64,000 bases of DNA from Octopus vulgaris. Its lineage: Eukaryota. The notes below the pieces were generated by a model. The model made no database searches. It worked only from the letters and a program-made list of their open reading frames with translations, and was not told where the DNA came from. Position 1 is the stretch's first letter. Each line of letters begins with the position of its first letter. Positions 97 through 45,729 of the stretch are shown here, piece after piece. The stretch covers positions 50,344,001-50,408,000 of the forward strand of contig OX597820.1 in the NCBI GenBank assembly GCA_951406725.2. The letters are read 5' to 3'. Made by a program: the position numbers and the translations under genes.

Positions 97-880
97 CAGT
101 GTAAAGAGAGGGGTTGCTCAGTACCAAAAACATTGTGCAAAAATATAAATAGCAATCGTGATGCACACCACAAAGAAATGATCAAGCTCAATAACGATCT
201 GTTAAGCAACAACTACCCTAAAAGTATACTATCCACTCCAATTATGAAGAAGAGAGAGGATGAGGCTAATAAATTGTCCATAGTCTGTCTACCTAATGTG
301 AAAGGCTTCTCCGAAAAGATACAAAATATATGCGGCACAATATGACATCAGGACAGTATTCAAGAGTAATACAACGCTTCGCAAATATTTCCTTCGGCTA
401 AAACCACCAATAGAATAGAATATGACCAAAGACTGTGTGTACTCCATCCCATGTAGCTGTGGTAGGCTATACAAAGGCGAAACATGCCGTCCCCTCAAAA
501 TAAGGGTAGACGAACATCGCAAAGCTGTGACACGAAGATATATTGATAAATCGGGTATAGCTGATCATGTGGGATGAAGTTAAAATAATAGACAGAGAAC
601 ACCACTGGAAAATACGAAAACTAAAAGAAGCAGCACACATGCTAGGACACCCACAACCTCCTAAGCAGACGGAGTGCTGATATGAGCAGCATATGGAAAC
701 CGGTATTAAGGAAGGATAGAAAAATATTAGATTTATCAGCCCTAAAATTCACTCCATAATTGTCCAAGGGGATTTGGCCTAGTTGTTAAGAGCGTGGGCT
801 GCTAACCCCAAAATTCCGAGTTCGATTACAAGCAGTAACCTGAATAATAATAATAATATATATCTTAGGATTAAGAGCCC
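97..880 (+). mobile_element. Penelope-like element fragment (RT C-terminus, GIY-YIG endonuclease, 3' repeat with tRNA-like module); degenerate
   Basis: ORF 61-345 (LLSNNYPKSIL...VCLPNVKGFSEKIQNIC) continues after a frameshift as YDIRTVFKSNTTLRKY..CVYSIPCSCGRLYKGETCRPLKIRVDEHRK..WDEVKIIDREHHWKIRKLKEAAH, a typical PLE GIY-YIG domain with stops and frameshifts. Segment 775-880 matches 28861-29120 apart from the length of the intervening microsatellite. Confidence 0.88.
775..842 (+). other. tRNA-derived module (Pol III A/B-box-like) in the PLE 3' region
   Basis: TGGCCTAGTTGTTAAGAGCG (A-box-like), GGG-CTGCTAA-CCC anticodon-like arm, GAGTTCGATT (B-box-like). No complete acceptor stem. Confidence 0.7.
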
Positions 881-1345
881 AAATGTATCTGTTTTCGGTT
901 TACTGTACCCCGTACTCTATTATGCATTACAACTATTTTAAAGATTAAATAGTGTTTTTAGGCCATTTGATTAGTTTAGGTACAGTAACGACAATCATTA
1001 GCATTTTGAATGCGTAAGATTAATTATAAAGTGAGTTAGATATCGTGGTTGACATATCAGAGCTGTTTTCTAAATTATATATATACCATTATGCACATGA
1101 ATTATTTAGAACACTTATGCCATCACAATGTTGTCCAATAAGAAAGAATAAGTCACAACCGGTTCATTTAGTATAATTCAGATCCATATTCATATGGATA
1201 TATTTGAGTAACATTATTGTTATCAGGCTGGTAACTTCATATCATATCACTAGCATTATATTGGAGTTATTGAATAGTATAATACTGAAATAGAAATAAC
1301 GTTGCTTCATGCCCCTGTGATATTACGAATAATGTAATTGTGTTA

Positions 1346-1541
1346 AGGCGGCGAGCTGACAGAAACGTTAGCACGCCGGGCGGAATGCTAAGCGTTACTT
1401 CGTCAGTCTTTACGTTCAGAGTCGAAATTCCACCGAGGTCGTCTTTGCCTTTCATCCTTTCGGGGTGGATTAATTAAGTACCAGTTGCCTACTGGTGTCT
1501 CTCATCCAAATTTTCGGGTTTTGTGCCTAGAGTAGAAAAGA
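1346..1541 (+). mobile_element. tRNA-derived SINE with Nin/Deu-like core (cephalopod SINE family)
   Basis: GGCGGCGAGCTGACAGAAACGTTAGCACGCCGGGCG head and GCCTTTCATCCTTTCGGGGT..AAGTACCAG core. A reverse-complement copy lies at 52769-52979. Confidence 0.82.
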
Positions 1542-16757: not shown

Positions 16758-18205
16758 CTATTTATCATGAAACTTATTATATAGGTAAAGTAACTTATGT
16801 CTGCATTTTATTTTGCGCTCTTCACCAGTATTAAGTAAATTATCATACTTATAAAATAAAATTTCTTTAAACTCATTAGAGCATAAATAACAACAATTAG
16901 CTCCTATAGTATATGATTTAGTTTTACAAATTATTTCCCAAATTAAACTATAATTAATATTTAGTGATTTAAGACTCCAAATGTACTTACTAAGTCCGGT
17001 TGAGTTGATTAAGTTTTTATTTTTAAAAGAATTCATATGTTGTGCGATTCTTAGTTTTATTTTTGAGGAAGTAGAACCTATATAAACCGCTTTTGTGTAA
17101 TTATTATTCTTAAAGTTATTATCATGTAATGTAACTATACATTTATACACTACATCGTTAATATCACAATTATTGTTTAATATACAATTAGATTTATCTC
17201 TACATGTACAATTAATATAAGTCTTATCATTATTAATATTATTATCAAATAATTTCTTTTTATAAAAATTATTCAGTTTATATTTATTAAATGAAGAAAT
17301 AATGTTACCAACATTATTAGTGGTAGAGTAACCAACTCCAAAATTATTAAAAGAGAAAATGTTTCTATATTTACGATTATCTCTAATAAATAGTTCTATA
17401 ACATCTAAAATCTCTTTAATAATATTCGTTTTTACTTGATCTCCATAAGGAACTATTAACCAAATTTTATTCTTATTAACCTTATTATTATTATCATTAT
17501 TATAAATATATTTATAATTCTTTATTTTATTAAAATTATTATCAGAATTATATCTATGTACAGCATTTAAGGAATTATTAATATTATTAAATTTATCAAT
17601 ATAATTATAATAATTATTAAATTTATTTTTATTTTTATTATTCTTATTTATATTATTATTATATTTATTATTATTATTATTATTCTTATTTATATTTTTA
17701 TCATTTTTATTATTTTTTTATAATATCTATTATTTATACCACTAAACCTTACAAAATTATAATTATTATTAGAAGTATCTCGAAAATTAACAATTAAATC
17801 TTTATCACTAATATTATAAAATTTAATATTACTATTATAACCTGCCCCTCTAAGGGCCTCATTATAATATTTAGCATGTTTATTAAAAATCTCTATATCA
17901 TAAGAGAGTAATGAAATAGGTTTACTTATATTATTAATCAACGATTTTTTAATAGAAAATGGGTGATTACTATTAACATTTATATATCTAAGGTTCTCAT
18001 TAAGTTTATGATATGGTTGTGTTTTACCTGTAATAAGATTAAAATTAACATCTAAATAATTAACATTATAATTCTCCTTATATATAGTAATACTTAAACC
18101 ATATCTTTTAAAGAAACTATATAATTTTTTCTTATATACTTCTAGATTCCTATTAGTACAATTCTTTGTAACTAGTAGAAGATCGTCTCTATATAAACCA
18201 TCCAT
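16758..18205 (-). pseudogene. PLE reverse transcriptase (C-terminal part) and GIY-YIG endonuclease, Naiad-like; frameshifted
   Basis: RT: GLYRDD, NYLDVNF, YINVNSNHP, YYNEALRGAGY. Then KIWLIVPYGDQVKTNI and a CTCRDKSNCILNNNC Zn motif. EN: VVYKC..VYIGST..KLRIAQH..LSKYIWSLK..CYLCSNE..CRHK. The frame is broken in an Asn-rich linker (~17520-17720). Confidence 0.9.
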
Positions 18206-28809: not shown

Positions 28810-28973
28810 GCAGTTCTATGTTGAAGAGATGAGGAATTATGTACATTATTTACATATGACGTAGTGGTTAAGAGCGCGGGCTACTAACCCCAAGATTCTG
28901 AGTTCGATTCCAGGCAGTAAACGGAATAATAATGATAATTCAACTACTACTACAACTACTACTACTACTATTA

Positions 28974-29032
<59 letters not shown>

Positions 29033-29233
29033 ACTACTACTACTACTACTATTACTACTACTACTAATAATAATAACAACAACAACAACATCGTAAAATA
29101 CCTTAAGAATGAGAACCCAGGTTCGAAATTTCCCCAGAAACCTGATGAAGGCTGGAGGGTATATCAGTCGAAACGTTGTGTTAACACGAAACAAGATGAG
29201 GTCAAAAATCCGTCAAATGTAAAGAATGTATAT
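28810..29233 (+). mobile_element. Non-autonomous PLE terminal-repeat element: inverted tail, tRNA-like head, microsatellite, hammerhead
   Basis: 28839-28861 is an inverted copy of 29211-29233. tRNA-like segment 28861-28912 matches 779-830. HHR core at 29142-29177. Confidence 0.8.
29137..29182 (+). ncRNA. Minimal type I hammerhead ribozyme
   Basis: GAAAC-CTGATGA-A-GGCTG(GAGGGTATAT)CAGTC-GAAAC-GTT-GTGTT. Stem I has one mismatch; stem III is the palindromic AACGTT. Confidence 0.7.
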
Positions 29234-29727
29234 ATTTATGTAGTAGCAAAATTTACGTTAGTTGAAATATTTTCATGACATATTCCGAATTCACTGAGTT
29301 ACCGGGGAGAAAAATGATCTCTTATTGTAAAATTGTCCAGAAACACCATCTCTGTCTGATGCTACCCGCTGTCAGATTCCTGTTCTAGCTCTTTAAACGT
29401 TACCAATGGGAAATATCGAAGAGAGAGAACTCTCCGGCTGTTTATTAGCACACCCGAGTCAATGCTGTTGACTGTATTTTAGTTAAAGCTACGGATTTAG
29501 TTAAATCTGCGCAGAGTAGCTTCTCCTCCGTATTGCGGGTGGATACTGGTTAAAGATCTAGAAATGCATCTTGGGATCCGACAAGGGATAGCACTGGACA
29601 GATATGGTGTTTGTTTTTACATCATTTTACCATTAAAATAGAATTTTTCTCCACGAAAACTGAGGTGAATTTTCCTTTAGAAGTTGAAATATATCACAAA
29701 AATATTTTAACTAACCTAAGGTTTACT

Positions 29728-31349: not shown

Positions 31350-32474
31350 AGAAAGGGTAAAATCTTTGCTGAACCAAGCCCAGCAAAATTCACCAGCGGT
31401 GTCCCCCAGGGGACTGTCTTGGGCCCGCTACTCTTTATAATTTACATAAACGACCTTTCCAGTGTCGTACATTAGTGTAAAGTGAAAATATTTGCTGATG
31501 ACACTAAGCTCCAGCAAATCGTCAATGAAGAAGAAGACCGAACTCAACTCTAGTCTGATCTATATGCTGTGAGTCAATGGGCAGACAGAAACAAAATGCA
31601 ACTGAATGAGGGGAAATTTGAGCTCATGCATTTTGGAAGAAATTCCTCACTAAAACAATCATACTCTCTTCCTTTAGGGGAACCGCTCACAGTCTCTAAC
31701 AATATCAGAGACCTGGGTGTATTTGTTGATGACGATCTCAGTTGGAGTGCACACATCAACAATAAGGTCGATATAGCTCGTAGGATGAGTTCCTGGATCT
31801 TAAGAACTTTCCGGTCCAGAGAACAAGGTGTCATCATACCACTTTTATCCTTCTCTGTACGGCCACACGTCGAATACTGCTGCCCACTGTGGTCTCCCCA
31901 TACAAGACAAAACATCTCGAGGATTGAATCACCCCAGAAGGCACTCACTAAACGAATTGAAGGCATGGCTGCTCTCGATTATTGGGACCGCCTTAAAGCC
32001 TTGAAACTCTACTATCTCCAGCGTCGCCGTGAGCGGTACATCATTTGTACGATGCGGAGAATATACCGCCAACTTTGCCCAAACAACCTGAACATTAGCT
32101 TCAAGGTTCATCCATGACTGGGACCACGGGCCATACGTCCTCTGCCCAATTCAAGATCACAGCATACATGTACACCGCAACATAATTTCTTTTCCCCAAC
32201 AGGCCCTGCCCTATTTTACATTGTCCCGAAAGAGATCAAAGAGGAAAAGGATCCCATCAACTTTAAACGGAGTCTGGATAGATTCCTTCAAGGAATACCA
32301 GATAAGCCACCCATAATTGGATACAAATCACCCAACAAAAACTCACTACTTGAATGGACCATAAACAAAACTTGACTTAAACAGGATTCAGATAATCCTA
32401 TCAGGTGGTGCTATTAAGTTAGACATGGCCTGGACCAATCTTTGGTCGAAACATATCTAAGTTTATCTAAGTTC
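31350..32474 (+). mobile_element. CR1/L2-group LINE, 5'-truncated (RT C-terminal part and 3' end)
   Basis: [33 protein letters not shown] 31569-32117 contains IRDLGVFVDDDLSW, VRPHVEYCCPLWSP and YWDRLKALKL. The 3' tail is (TATCTAAGTT)x2, followed by (TA)n. Confidence 0.92.
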
Positions 32475-32497
32475 ATATATATATATATATATATATT

Positions 32498-35400
32498 GAT
32501 GGCAATCCCTCAAGGTCGAGGATGATGGTCTTCGCGCAAATTTACTGGTGAGTCCGTAGGTGACCGATAAGACCAATTCTTGCTTGAAAAGATCGGTCGC
32601 AATGCGGACATCTAGTGCCGGAAGGGAGAGTCGCACGTGGTTGTTGTTGGCGCTCCTTCCGTCGTCGTCTTTTCTCCTCCAGCTCTGCAGACATTTTCGA
32701 CTCGAAAGTCGCCGTTCCCTCATGGATGGTGGTTTTCCAGAGTGGTCTGTTTTTTGCCGTTTCCTCCCAGTTAGTGAAGTCGATGTCACACTTTTTGAGG
32801 TTCGTTTTCAGGGAGTCCTTGTAGCGTTTCTTCTGGCCTCCTTTTGTACGCTTGCCGTCTTTGAGTTGGGAGTAGAAGATATGTTTGGGAAGTCGTTCAT
32901 CAGTCATTCTAACCACGTGGCCGCTCCATCTTAGTTGGCCTTTGATGACATAGGCTTCGATGCTGGTCATGTTTGCTTCTTGCAGCACACTGACGTTAGT
33001 TCTTCTGTCTTCCCAGCTGATGTTAAGGATCTTCCGAAGACAGCGTTGGTGAAATTTCTCGAGCGTTTTCAGGTGGTGACTATACGGGGTCCAGGTTTCG
33101 GATGCGTAAAGGAGGGTTGGAATAATGACTGCCCTGTACACCATGAGTTTAGTCTCGGTTCGGATGTCCCGATCAGCAAAAACTCTTGTTCGAAGCTTGC
33201 CGAAAGCTGTTCCTGCACACTTCAGACGGTGTTGGATTTCATCGCTGAGGTCTACCTTTGCTGACAGATGGCTCCCAAGGTAGCAGAAATGGTTCACATT
33301 TCCCAATGGAATTCCTTCGAGTTGAATCGATGGCGGGTTGTCAACACGGGCATGGGTTGGTAGAGTAAGTGAGTCGTCTTGATGTTGATGCTCAGTCCAA
33401 GTTTAGTATATGCATGATGATTTAAGATCTGTTGGAGGTGATCCTCTCTGTAAACTGCTACACTGTTGTCGTCGGCATATTGGAACTCTAGCAAGCTTCG
33501 CGCCATTGTCTTTGACGTACTTTCGAGGCGAGCGAGGTTGAAAAGCTTTCCGTCCATTCTGTACGAGATCTCGATGCCAGGTGGAAGGGCATCTCGTATG
33601 ATGTGCAACACTGTCGCGATAAAGATGGTAAAGAGAGTTGGCGCTATCACGCAGCCTTGCTTCACTCTGGAGGTGACTTTAAAGGGCTCAGAACTGCCTC
33701 CATCGGTCTGGACTCTGGCGTGCATATTGTCGTGGAGGAGTTTGAGGATCCGGATGAACTTATCTGGGCATCCATACTGGGCGAGAATATCCCAGAGGAG
33801 CTCTCGCGAGACACGATCAAAGGCTTTGGATAGGTCGATAAAGGCCAAATAGAGCGGTTGGTGTTGCTCACGACATTTTTCTTGTAGCTGTCGCAGCGTA
33901 AAGATCATGTCGGATGTGCTTCGTGATGGCCTAAAGCCGGTCTGCGTCTCAGGAAGGATCCTCTCTGACAGCGTTTTGAGGCGGTTGTTCAGGATCGGTG
34001 CAAGAATCTTCCCAGCAGTTGCTAATAAGTAAATACCCCGGTAATTTCCACACTCAGAACGATCGCCCTTTCGTTTGTAAATGGTAATGATGTTAGCATC
34101 CCTGAAGTCGGATGGTACAATTTCATTTGTCCAAGAGTTAGTGGAGCTGGTGATGGACAAAATCACCTCCCAGTTTGTAGATCTCAGCTGGGATTCCGTC
34201 AGGACCCGTAGCTTTGTTGTTCTTCATCACTGTGATAGCAATTTTGACCTCTTCGAGGGATGGAATTCGAGCGAGAGAGTAATCTTTGGCCTCTTTAGGA
34301 ATCATGTCAAGTATGCTTTTGTCGATGGTAGCCTTGTGATTGAGGAGGTCATCGAAGTGTTCTCTCCATCTGTCTCCTATTTCAGTGTTGCTTTTCAGGA
34401 TGGTCGCTCCGTCTTTACTCTTCAGAGGAGCCTGTCCATGTGTGGAAGGTCCGTATATTTCTTTCGTGGCTTTGAAGAACCCTCTGGTGTCGTTTACATC
34501 TGCTAGCTGCTGGATTTCACGAGATTTGTGTCTCCACCACTGGTTCTTCAGGGTACGGGTTGTCCTTTGAACTGCGGCTTTGCACTTTTTGAAAGACTCT
34601 CGTTTAATGGCAGACTTTGGATCATTCTGTGAGCTGATGAAAGATTTCCATTTTTGGTCGATCAGTTCTTTGAGAGCTTCATCATTGTCGTCGAACCAGT
34701 CCTGGTGTTTCCTTTTCTTGCGACCGATGGTTTCTTCGCAAGCGGTGATGATGGTTTCTTTCAGCTGGTTCCAATTTTCTTCGATGAGATGATTTGGAGT
34801 CTTATTTTGAAGATTGACCTGTAGGCGCTGCTGGAAAGCGACACGAGTTTTGGGTCTTGCAGTGCTTCGATGTTGAATTTCTTTACTCTGCTTTCCTTGC
34901 TGTGATATTTCACTTTTGGTCGGCGATGAGGCGATGATCTGTCCAGCACTCATCTGCTCCAGTGGCGGCTCTGGTGAGCAACACATCTTGTTGGTCTCGG
35001 GATCTCATGATGATATAGTCGATGAGATGCCATTTTTTAAAACTTGGATGCTGCCATGAGACCTTATATCGATTCAGGTTATGTTCAGCAAATTTGGTGA
35101 GTAGCATAGTTCCATTTGCTTTGACTCTTCCCACTCCTTCCTTTCCGATGGTTCCAGTCCAGAGTTCACGATCTCTACCAACTCTGGCGTTGAAATCTCC
35201 CAGGAGAATGATCTTGTTGTCCTTTGGGACGGTAGAGAGAATGCTATCAAGCTGGCTTTAAAACTCTTCCTTGACTAAATCCTCCGCGTCAAGGGTTGGA
35301 GCATACGCGCTGATGATAGTTGCGTGCTGACTTTTGACAAGCTGGATTCGGAGGGTCATGAGTCGTGCGGACATTCCGATGGGCTGCTCTGTCAGTTTGG

Positions 35401-39785: not shown

Positions 39786-42113
39786 GAACCCAATGAGAAC
39801 GGTTTATTTTTTTTTTATCATCAACTAGGTTGCATTGACGGTAATCATCTCGGCTGAGATGAGCAGTTAGCGCTCGACGATGGTTCGGCATATGTCTACA
39901 TCAACCACTTTAACCAGTTTACAGCAGAGATTTATTCGGTTGCCTGCGCGTGGCAACTGTGATCGCGCCGATTGAGGTCTGTACTCAGTGCGAGATAACG
40001 TTTGGCGTATATTTACATCAGCCGCTTTAGTGCAAGTACTTTACCTAAACTAGATCCCTGTTCAGGACGCTAATGCCGTATTATTATTCCTGAATAAGAT
40101 CACGCGACAGTAGACGTCAGATCAACTTCATGTATTTACAATCACATGAATTCAAAAATTGGCTTTAGTGTGGTAGAGTTAAAAAAAAATCAGGGTACAA
40201 CACACAGTGGCATATGACATTGTGAACAATGTTATGTAGTTTCCTTCTTTTTCCCTTTTGCTTTACACATTGTGAATATCTTTGAAGCATTTGTTTTCTT
40301 GGCGGAGGGGGAAACAGTCAGGGAAAATGTCCACGTCCCTTCGCCATGTGGTGAGTAGAGAGCCTGGCGTGGGAAGGTCCACACATTCTGTAATTTGGCA
40401 GGTATGATGGTTCTGTCATTTCATGAAACAGTAGATTGCTTAATGTCAATCCATTCACCACACCGCCAAGCATCTAGCAAATCAAATGTGAGTTCAGGAC
40501 ACACATGTCAACTATATACAAGTAAATTTCTTTTGTACCATTTCAAACATTTCCTCACCGATTTGTGCGTCGTCAGCAGCTGATCTGAGCGACCGACCCA
40601 ACCCGTTCCTTCACTGTATGAAACAACTTCACTCTGTTTCAATATGTCATTACCGTCCGCATCTTGTTTCCTAGTTTCCTTCATGCTTGCAGAATGTATT
40701 GTGGAGAACATGCAGACATTTATTTTGTCACTCCACATCAGAGCGAGAATGTCACTAATGGTGCATTTGTACGCTGTTTACAACTTTCGAAGTTCTATCT
40801 TGTAAAGATCGGGTGGCATGTTTTTCATTGTGCGTCCTCAGAGTCCTACATGCAAGTCTTCCTCGCCTGCAGCTGCAGGAAGAGGTCAACTAGAAAATCA
40901 TTTGTCCATACAAATATTGTAGCCTTTGTCAAACAAGTTTTTATTCAGCGACAACACGACATCAGTTGACGCAAGAGTAGACGCTGGAAGATCCGATGTG
41001 TCTTGACCAGTGTAGATTTTGTATTTCCACGTGTACCCACAGGCTCTGCCAGTTGACTGCCATACTTTGTGAAATCTGAATCCAAAGCAGGCACGTTTGA
41101 TCGGGTTGTATTGTTTGAATCGCAGCCTTACTTTGAATTCCCACAAATTCTCCTCCAAACAAATGTCCTGTGTGGGAACATATAACGTTCTGAAATGTTC
41201 AGCTACTTCGTCAACGATAGAACGTTTTATGAGAAGCCTGTCATACTGGTTCTCGCCTGAGTTGAAATGTATATTTTGAAGAAGCACCAAAATTTCATCA
41301 CTTGGGTTTGTTTCCGGAAGGAAAAGTGTCAGCGTGGCTGAATCCCGATTCCAATATGACGCCATTGTCGATTTCTTCACGATGCCAATCAATATCAGCA
41401 GGGCAAGCAGAACTTTGATTTTGTCTCCTGTGGTACGAAACCAATCTCTGCCATGCCCGGGTTTGATATGGAATCACCATAGTCATTCATTTCGTTTGCT
41501 ATATATTGGAACATTTCATCTGTCAAAAACATTTCCAATGGTGAAATTCCGTGTTCAAAGTTTGCCTTTATGCCAGACAAATTAGTAAAACCATGTTGTC
41601 GGACGAAATTGTCGCTTATTCACCACACGACTTTATGTTGTCCAGGGCCATTCATTGCTGCTCGCCTGTACCTTATATTCTCCGGAATATTATCATCGCT
41701 ATCGGAATCATCTGATTCTGAAATAAGGAAATACTCACTCTCCGAGTCATCGTCCGAATCGGAAGAAATAACTGGTGAGGTGGTGTAGCTTGGTGTAGCA
41801 TGGAGCGACGACCGTAAATTCGAGGAAACAGGACGCAATGACGAATTTGACGGAGCTGGAGTGGTAGGCCAGGACGACAATAAATTCGATGAAACAGGAC
41901 GCGAAGACGAAGTTGACAGATCCAGAGTGGCAGGACCGGCCTATTGGGTTGTAAATATTTATATGAAACATCTAATCGGCCTATCAGTTGGCAGGTAGAC
42001 CGTTACTAACTCAGGCGACAGGTTCTATGTCACTCGTCGTATAATGAAGTCGACTTATATAAAGCATGTATATTGCGTTTGAAAATTTACGTCAAACATT
42101 CTAAAAGAGTTAA
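39786..42113 (-). mobile_element. piggyBac-family DNA transposon (transposase pseudogene ~40170-41900)
   Basis: PLEMFLTDEMFQYIANEMNDY; GIVKKSTMASYW; LYVPTQDICLEENLWEFKVRLRFKQYNPIK; GYTWKYKIYTG; LFDKGYNICMD; WSDKINVCMFSTIH; SYSEGTGWVGRSDQ; WYKR. TTAA at the right end (42110-42113). The left boundary and TIRs are degenerate. Confidence 0.88.
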
Positions 42114-45051: not shown

Positions 45052-45729
45052 CGAGGTGGCATCAAAATGTTCCAAGACTAACTCTGTAGCACGCCGACAG
45101 TTGCCAGCACATGGTTGCGTGCGCAGTAAGAGTTAGCAGCGATTATCATGAGGCAGTGTGGCGAGGGACATCGCTGTGTTTACTTCGGATGTTGTAAAAT
45201 TTGTGGTTTTATCATCACGTGACCAATCTGGAATACCTTCCACGAGTGTCACCCACCGAAAATTTGAGAGAATTCATCAGCTTGTGGGTGAGGGTCGTTG
45301 CAGGAAAATCAACGACATTTTGAAGTGTTTGAGGGAGGACATTTGGAAAAAGCGAACGGATCTATGGAAGGCGAAGAATTGGATTCTTCATGAAGAAAAT
45401 GCACCCTGTCGCCGAGCTCTCCTCACACGTGAATTTGTCACCAGAAACAAACATTTCCTCGCTCCGGGCCCGATCCTTTCGCAAGATATAGCACCAACGG
45501 GCTTCTATCTCTTTCCCAATATGAAAATGCAGCTCAAAGGTCACCATTTTAACACCACAAATTGCAGAAGGTCCTTGACTAGCTTACGGAAAACGACTTC
45601 CAGGCCGGATTCCAAAGGTGGCAGGAACGCTGGGACCGGTGTATTTCGAAGTAGGATATGTCAAAACTTAGGTAAATAAATTATTTCCTATTAAAAATAA
45701 CTAGTCCGGGAATTTTTGATACGAGCTCG
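45052..45729 (+). mobile_element. Internally deleted mariner transposon
   Basis: TA-flanked imperfect ~28 bp TIRs (CGAGGTGGCATCAAAATGTTCCAAGACTA versus reverse complement CGAGCTCGTATCAAAAATTCCCGGACTA). ORF contains WILHEENAPC and SQDIAPTGFYLFPNMKMQLKGHHF (HDNA and SPDLAPxDF remnants). Confidence 0.9.

Follow-up and report, generated by a model that had tools for sequence, protein, structure and literature searches.

The short repeat at positions 28810..29233 of the window (the whole stretch of 64,000 nucleotides of Octopus vulgaris DNA that was analysed) derives from a Penelope-like retrotransposon, or Penelope-like element (PLE), of whose terminal repeat (pLTR) it is a short, dead copy; it does not represent a separate SINE. 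An earlier note, made from the sequence alone, had read it as a candidate SINE/retrozyme hybrid mobilised in trans by a PLE. Mobilisation by PLE machinery is supported, but the hybrid is not: the head, the spacer and the hammerhead are integral to the pLTR of an autonomous PLE, no diagnostic alleles set the short copies apart, and what looks like a tail is the start of the PLE ORF. The short copies were probably made by the PLE reverse transcriptase (RT) copying an RNA begun at a Pol III promoter in the tRNA-like head. The motif coordinates in the window copy, read by eye from a sequence ruler, are as follows.

28810..28855 (-): inverted arm, consisting of the PLE tail and the end of the 3' module; its reverse complement matches the tail in L003-L006 and in ORF-start junction copies
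28853..28924 (+): tRNA-like head, starting at about +4 of the family head; identified by host tRNA alignment and by the 5'-end pile-up at -6..+2 in other copies
28857-28867 (+): A box, inside the tRNA-like head
28900-28911 (+): B box, inside the tRNA-like head, with 33 nt from the A box to the 11-nt B-box core
~28925-29088 (+): variable trinucleotide spacer, strongly expanded in the window copy
29109..29111 (+): predicted start codon (ATG) of the PLE ORF, before the hammerhead; in the window copy the frame is soon interrupted (window translation)
29120-29129: second B-like word, within the first codons of the PLE ORF
29137..29182 (+): minimal type-I hammerhead, with core at 29142-29148 and 29170-29177; pair counts taken in 137 family copies
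29150-29169: hammerhead helix II; helix III is palindromic, the predicted cut falls after 29177, and helix I is damaged in the window copy
29183..29231 (+): rest of the 3' module (5' ORF sequence) up to the proximal RT start site; no tail
97..880 (+): another family copy, decayed: 3' portion of the PLE ORF (GIY-YIG-like region), then the same head (772-857); hammerhead absent

All motifs listed in the earlier note are present in the window copy, and their layout is corrected in several respects. The inverted piece, given there as 28810-28861, loses its last 6 nt, which are part of the head and not of the inverted arm. Its complementarity to the 3' end holds for the inner part (28835-28861 against 29211-29237, 85% over 27 nt) but not for the outer ~25 nt, which are the PLE tail and are absent from the sense arm. 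Homology to the copy at 97-880 extends over the head (772-857, 85% over 86 nt) but not over the hammerhead, since that copy ends before it. The second B-like word, lying within coding sequence, finds no support as a promoter box. The two arms of the window copy meet in a short imperfect microhomology at ~28852-28861, and the inverted arm may be a short second cDNA that started at the distal RT start site. Across family copies, the spacer ranges from a few units up to hundreds of nucleotides. A different tRNA-like, SINE-looking repeat lies at ~1345-1530 (+) of the window.

The parent Penelope-like element

In the genome examined (2.8 Gb, 227 contigs), the autonomous unit has the order ORF (RT, then a GIY-YIG-like domain), stop, tRNA-like head, trinucleotide spacer, ATG, minimal hammerhead and ORF start. 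In ORF-bearing copies, the ORF stop leads straight into the same head, spacer, hammerhead and tail; at the other end, this 'tail' continues into the N-terminus of the PLE ORF. The ATG upstream of the hammerhead opens into a conserved PLE N-terminal domain in 3 of the 6 copies listed, out of 7 tried (L234, L231 and L224), and in a homologue of 55% identity the alignment begins at the hammerhead codons (47%, E 1.6e-23). These observations identify the element of the earlier note as a pLTR whose hammerhead is also coding sequence, like that of PAc in Anolis (PMC11167929).

As in EN+ PLEs, a single ORF carries RT followed by a GIY-YIG-like domain, and pLTRs formed from partial tandems occur together with inverted 5' arms and a tail in the 30-40 nt range. 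Three true tandem junctions place the head upstream of the ORF (L215, L226 and L230). The putative placement in the Penelope/Poseidon clade is based on domain order and on layout similarity to PAc, the Poseidon element of Anolis. One copy (L171) retains an open frame of 569 aa, in which Pfam RVT_1 scores E 2.7e-6, just under the cut-off. Homologues of the PLE protein show 38-69% identity, with PF01541 GIY-YIG on 3 of the 120 listed, and the GIY-YIG motif in protein P0001 was read by eye. A sequence search of the PDB gave no match, and no related loci were found in viral contigs. Eight distant PLE fragments in metagenome contigs contained no B-box match, few of the 8 including a pLTR.

Some loci are unusual in their arrangement or distribution. 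At L279 (G000:C11:48298876-48300288), three motifs of the ORF-start junction follow one another closely in tandem, and a single 34.6-Mb contig (C29 of G000, ~1% of the genome) accounts for 7 of the 70 exact matches to the ORF-start junction, which may reflect local enrichment or duplication. The window also contains remains of other mobile elements. Very AT-rich ORF fragments at 16758-18205 (-), with RT-like and GIY-YIG-like motifs by eye and no convincing Pfam match, probably belong to a second, unrelated PLE and served as a control for T4 runs. A LINE ORF spread over three frames at 32542-35004 (-; RVT_1 E 2.5e-30) is one that we take to be RTE-like, and a transposase fragment at 40898-41473 (-; Pfam DDE_Tnp_1_7 E 3.6e-26) is presumably piggyBac-like. 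Two decayed ORF fragments without a Pfam match resemble, by eye, a mariner-type transposase (45152-45679, +) and the C-terminus of a LINE RT (31554-32117, +).

The tRNA-like head and the 5' ends of copies

The head resembles tRNA genes of the host, reaching z scores of 8.4, 7.2 and 6.4 with the best 3 of 25 distinct tRNAs, a score attained by none of 300 shuffles. It aligns best with tRNA-Arg and tRNA-Thr, among 30 host tRNA loci that covered only 6 isotypes. ARAGORN and Rfam (gathering and E-value thresholds) reported no tRNA and no hammerhead in the window or in 5 other copies, and RNAfold produced no cloverleaf for the head. The arrangement is that of tRNA-derived SINEs, in which a tRNA-related head bears A and B boxes 10-15 nt from the 5' end: here the distance is 13 nt, with a spacing of 33 nt between the boxes.

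The 5' ends were surveyed at the first matches to a hammerhead 33-mer on contig 1, 89 loci picked by this criterion alone. On 82 arms the 3' portion of the head is present. At most 28 of these arms end within the head, a figure that includes some self-complementary artefacts; 41 end at -6..+2, and the remaining 13 extend into the ORF. Thus 41 of the 54 arms that pass +3 stop within this 8-nt interval, with the mode at -6, where the in-head rate predicts 3.4 and the ORF rate 1.0; in this count L047 was moved by eye from ORF to head start, and the arms of one inverted locus are not independent. Exact-match counts across the genome rise from 839 in the ORF (~-127) and 1,138 (~-31) to 5,729 (~+12), 8,125 (~+40) and 9,943 in the 3' module. 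Given exact-match rates of 0.41-0.63 in ORF-selected copies, the copy-number step at the head amounts to 5-8 fold over ~45 nt, compared with a change of no more than 1.4 fold across ~97 nt within the ORF. The 5' ends therefore cluster at the head and are not random, a test that the earlier note had itself proposed, and this clustering favours a Pol III start. The mode is a G, 13 nt before the A box, a distance at which a Pol III start is expected (PMC8969392). Trimming by RNase P was rejected as the cause of the 5' ends, many of which lie at -6..-2, upstream of +1.

Where the arms stop there is also a small hairpin or palindrome (-6..+4), at which arms join head to head, and in three RNA runs no listed joint has better support than the fold-back joint at the start of the head (179-269 reads per run). 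This coincidence makes a structural hot spot conceivable: the head would be left over, without function, from the insertion of a SINE or tRNA into the PLE 3' UTR, copies would derive from long read-through transcripts, and the hairpin would favour fold-back or annealing. Head-to-head junctions centred on the hairpin are common, RNA-seq shows only read-through, and 5' truncation with inversion is typical of PLEs (PMC8557442). However, the hairpin has only 3 pairs, and the stronger helix II of the hammerhead gives no comparable pile-up. Many copies also end at -6..+1 against unrelated flank without fold-back (e.g. L041, L092, L097, L104 and L124), and ends spread only 3' of -6, by eye with none in register past -8 until -33. 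An origin of the pile-up in the hairpin is for these reasons considered unlikely.

The start at -6 could also be real but due to Pol II, the A and B boxes being incidental. A TATA-like word is located at the ORF stop, ~30 nt upstream of -6, in ORF-linked copies, which is the right distance for such a promoter; upstream TATA words also serve Pol III genes. A capped RNA would account for translation, and PLE promoters typically lie in pLTRs (PMC6765202). The A and B boxes, however, stand at canonical spacing and distance from the 5' end (criteria of PMC8969392), and the sense strand lacks T4 runs, which together make a Pol II start a poor candidate, with little probability assigned to it.

The tails provide information on how the copies are primed. 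Among 59 head-to-head loci, the 33-nt tail is found on one arm in 56, on no arm in 3 and on both arms in 0, where 29 one-tail loci would be expected if the arms were independent (P 5e-14), and the window copy obeys the same one-arm-only rule. Such strictness suggests that both strands of one insertion may be primed from the two start sites. Internal priming at two sites, two-strand cutting and an ATG before the hammerhead cut are described for PAc of Anolis, which also needs RNA further downstream (PMC11167929).

In the favoured Pol III reading, an upstream pLTR would provide the start site (the G at -6) for a transcript that extends into the ORF, and by analogy with PAc this RNA, from upstream pLTR into ORF, would be the template. 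The PLE protein would bind the ORF-start region and cut both DNA strands, and the RT would prime at two internal sites ~33 nt apart, at ~+121 and ~+154 from the ATG. The short copies end at ~+121 or ~+154. The cDNA would then run off the 5' end of the RNA, and two cDNAs would join via the hairpin at -6..+4 or via microhomology. Since short copies end at the RT start sites and PAc needs downstream RNA, short copies could not, by analogy, be templates themselves. They would be by-products that map the start site of the element and not a self-propagating SINE, and their formation would not require hammerhead cleavage.

A more far-reaching version is put forward tentatively, as possible but on balance doubtful. 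Here an autonomous, protein-coding PLE would be transcribed end to end by Pol III from a captured tRNA-type pLTR promoter, the 2.6-kb unit having been purged of TTTT; translation of the uncapped RNA would begin at the ATG that precedes the hammerhead, and over ten thousand SINE-like copies recording the start would come from internal priming at the first site.

The favoured reading also draws on the lack of T4 runs. No sense TTTT occurs in the 2,572 majority columns of the ~2.6-kb source element, compared with 27 A4 runs; base shuffling gives a probability of 0.014 for none, and synonymous shuffling, an imperfectly framed yardstick, one of 0.023. Natural copies, which share one source, contain 16 T4 runs against 68 expected. 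The corresponding values in controls are 43 against 44 in 8 distant PLE loci (one of which, L309, is low, with 2 against 5), 4 against 4.5 in the RTE-like LINE and 15 against 15.5 in another window element. The L171 frame alone has 3 against 3.1, and GGGG is likewise absent from the source element, a further count of G4 runs giving 13 against 26 expected. T4 depletion as a sign of Pol III read-through is suggestive only and rests on one source element.

None of the sequencing runs listed as containing the stretch is recorded as RNA, and RNA was examined in three raw RNA-seq runs chosen by species label (related or identical), with ~6% of each read and library strandedness not stated. Element depth is about equal in both directions, and 73-79% of aligned reads continue into unlike sequence. 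The three runs list no pile-up of read starts or ends, no discrete small RNA and no hammerhead-cut ends. Passive read-through of many copies would produce this pattern, which fits the presence as well as the absence of a rare Pol III RNA. An A>G/T>C excess in the RNA is equalled in the contig control run and thus provides no evidence for A-to-I editing of inverted pairs.

The hammerhead and the source of the short copies

Short and ORF-bearing copies show no fixed differences over head and module (80 short against 36 ORF-linked arms), alleles being common to both. Divergence is 0.06-0.08 in the short and 0.09-0.11 in the ORF-linked copies, two sets that were picked differently. Only 7 of 91 ORF-start copies reach the A box and are informative; 4 of them begin at the head and 3 are tandem junctions into an upstream ORF, L226 having been re-binned by eye. 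A SINE would be a non-autonomous family with its own source copies, having only the 3' end in common with its partner; here, the whole unit lies within the PLE pLTR.

Many spacer-truncated copies are fused, just upstream of the 3' module, to the (AAT)n 3' ends of other recurring repeats, of at least two kinds (L002, L006, L025, L028, L056, L060, L105, L148, L212 and L240). These fusions suggest joining or targeting via microsatellite microhomology.

The hammerhead noticed in the earlier note exceeds chance, its family 33-mer having 2,017 exact matches in the genome and its reversed control 0. In the family, helix I has 4 pairs and a G-U, helix II has 5 pairs and a G-U, an extra base precedes helix II, and helix III is palindromic. 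This motif fits the minimal hammerhead of PLEs (min-HHR) described in PMC4209133, and its position in the pLTR is that of the minimal type-I hammerhead of EN+ PLEs; the core is intact in 83 of 137 copies. Covariation among these 137 dead copies was neither seen nor expected, the active hammerhead fold is absent from minimum-energy monomer and dimer folds (RNAfold), and no other minimal-hammerhead families were found in the examined loci or the window.

The cut site itself leaves little trace in the copies. Of 219 arms that reach it, 203 run past it, so that neither self-cleavage nor circles are needed to explain the copies. The other 16 stop in the 6-nt bin at the cut site, against 4-10 in four neighbouring bins, an excess confounded by the cut-site palindrome and by reference mismatches; at most a minority of templates was therefore cut. 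In the three standard RNA-seq runs, a library type in which small circles are lost, there was no read-end pile-up at the cut site and no circle-type joint among the joints listed. Retrozymes are recognised as tandem units bounded by hammerhead cut sites; copies of this family start at the head.

It is consequently very improbable that the repeat is an independent, self-cleaving or circular SINE or retrozyme with its own master copies, mobilised in trans by a PLE: short copies are 5-8 fold commoner than ORF-linked ones and keep internal A and B boxes, arm ends are in small excess at the predicted cut, and PLEs have been proposed as retrozyme partners (PMC7761336), but there are no diagnostic alleles, nearly all arms cross a cut site that neither bounds the copies nor collects read ends, helix I is damaged in the window copy, and the ORF RNA further downstream, which PAc requires (PMC11167929), would be missing from short copies.

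Relation to known systems

The earlier note knew of no described system that combines these parts. Such a combination is known in schistosomes, where Sm-alpha and Sj-alpha are tRNA-related, Pol III-driven, hammerhead-bearing, SINE-like repeats (PMC2770079, PMC6765202). A tRNA head with a hammerhead (Sm-alpha), PLE hammerheads, tails and inversions are all already known. Like Sm-alpha and Sj-alpha, the octopus unit is a short, ORF-less repeat of high copy number in which a hammerhead comes after a tRNA-related Pol III promoter, here predicted (PMC2770079, PMC6765202, PMC4918200). The schistosome repeats, however, carry canonical hammerheads that cleave multimeric tandem transcripts and, as far as these sources state, have no sequence in common with a PLE, whereas the octopus unit belongs to an autonomous PLE, is dispersed, and has a minimal hammerhead inside coding sequence.

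The closest resemblance in layout is to EN+ PLEs with minimal hammerheads such as PAc, in which one ORF encodes RT and then a GIY-YIG-like domain (PMC4209133, PMC11167929, PMC8557442). As described in these sources, PAc-type elements likewise have a pLTR from partial tandems, a minimal hammerhead within the pLTR and an ATG located before its cut site, a tail of 30-40 nt at one end, inverted 5'-truncated arms and thousands of dispersed truncated hammerhead copies. The octopus element differs from PAc-type PLEs, as described there, in having a tRNA-like A/B-box head in its pLTR, where most cDNAs stop, and a source ORF without sense T4.

Non-autonomous derivatives of PLEs have been proposed (PMC8557442), and metazoan non-LTR retrozymes are ORF-less hammerhead repeats proposed to use PLE machinery (PMC7761336). 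Retrozymes are tandem monomers, cut by the ribozyme and circularised, and are said in that source to be without promoters; octopus copies, in contrast, start at the head, ~250 nt or more before the cut site, and span the site intact. A promoter of small-RNA origin in a terminal repeat is also found in the TRIMp3 elements Cassandra, Helenus and Ajax, plausibly via SINE insertion; in the octopus pLTR this promoter is predicted. TRIMp3 elements are non-autonomous LTR elements of about 300-1,260 bp, whose autonomous partners are argued to need Pol II, whereas the octopus head sits in an ORF-bearing PLE (PMC10886601). Three papers on cephalopod repeats (PMC13282606, PMC8967140, PMC6962438) do not, in the portions available, describe the PLE family. 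No report of a tRNA-type promoter in a PLE pLTR or an autonomous PLE was found in the literature, with supplements, subscription papers, Repbase and Dfam outside the scope, and the family may already be catalogued.

Pol III tRNA-type promoters are otherwise associated with non-coding parasites such as SINEs, and little is established about the promoters of PLEs, the 5' ends of their RNAs and the way their tails and inversions arise. In this family, thousands of genomic copies mark out precisely what is probably an RNA 5' end, located at a tRNA-type promoter, and the one-arm-only tail rule predicts priming of both insertion strands from the two internal start sites. Such pLTR copies are probably mis-annotated as SINEs. 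If the Pol III RNA also encodes protein, this would contradict the view that autonomous retrotransposons must use Pol II (PMC10886601), and it would offer a route from the ends of PLEs to hammerhead SINEs of the Sm-alpha type.
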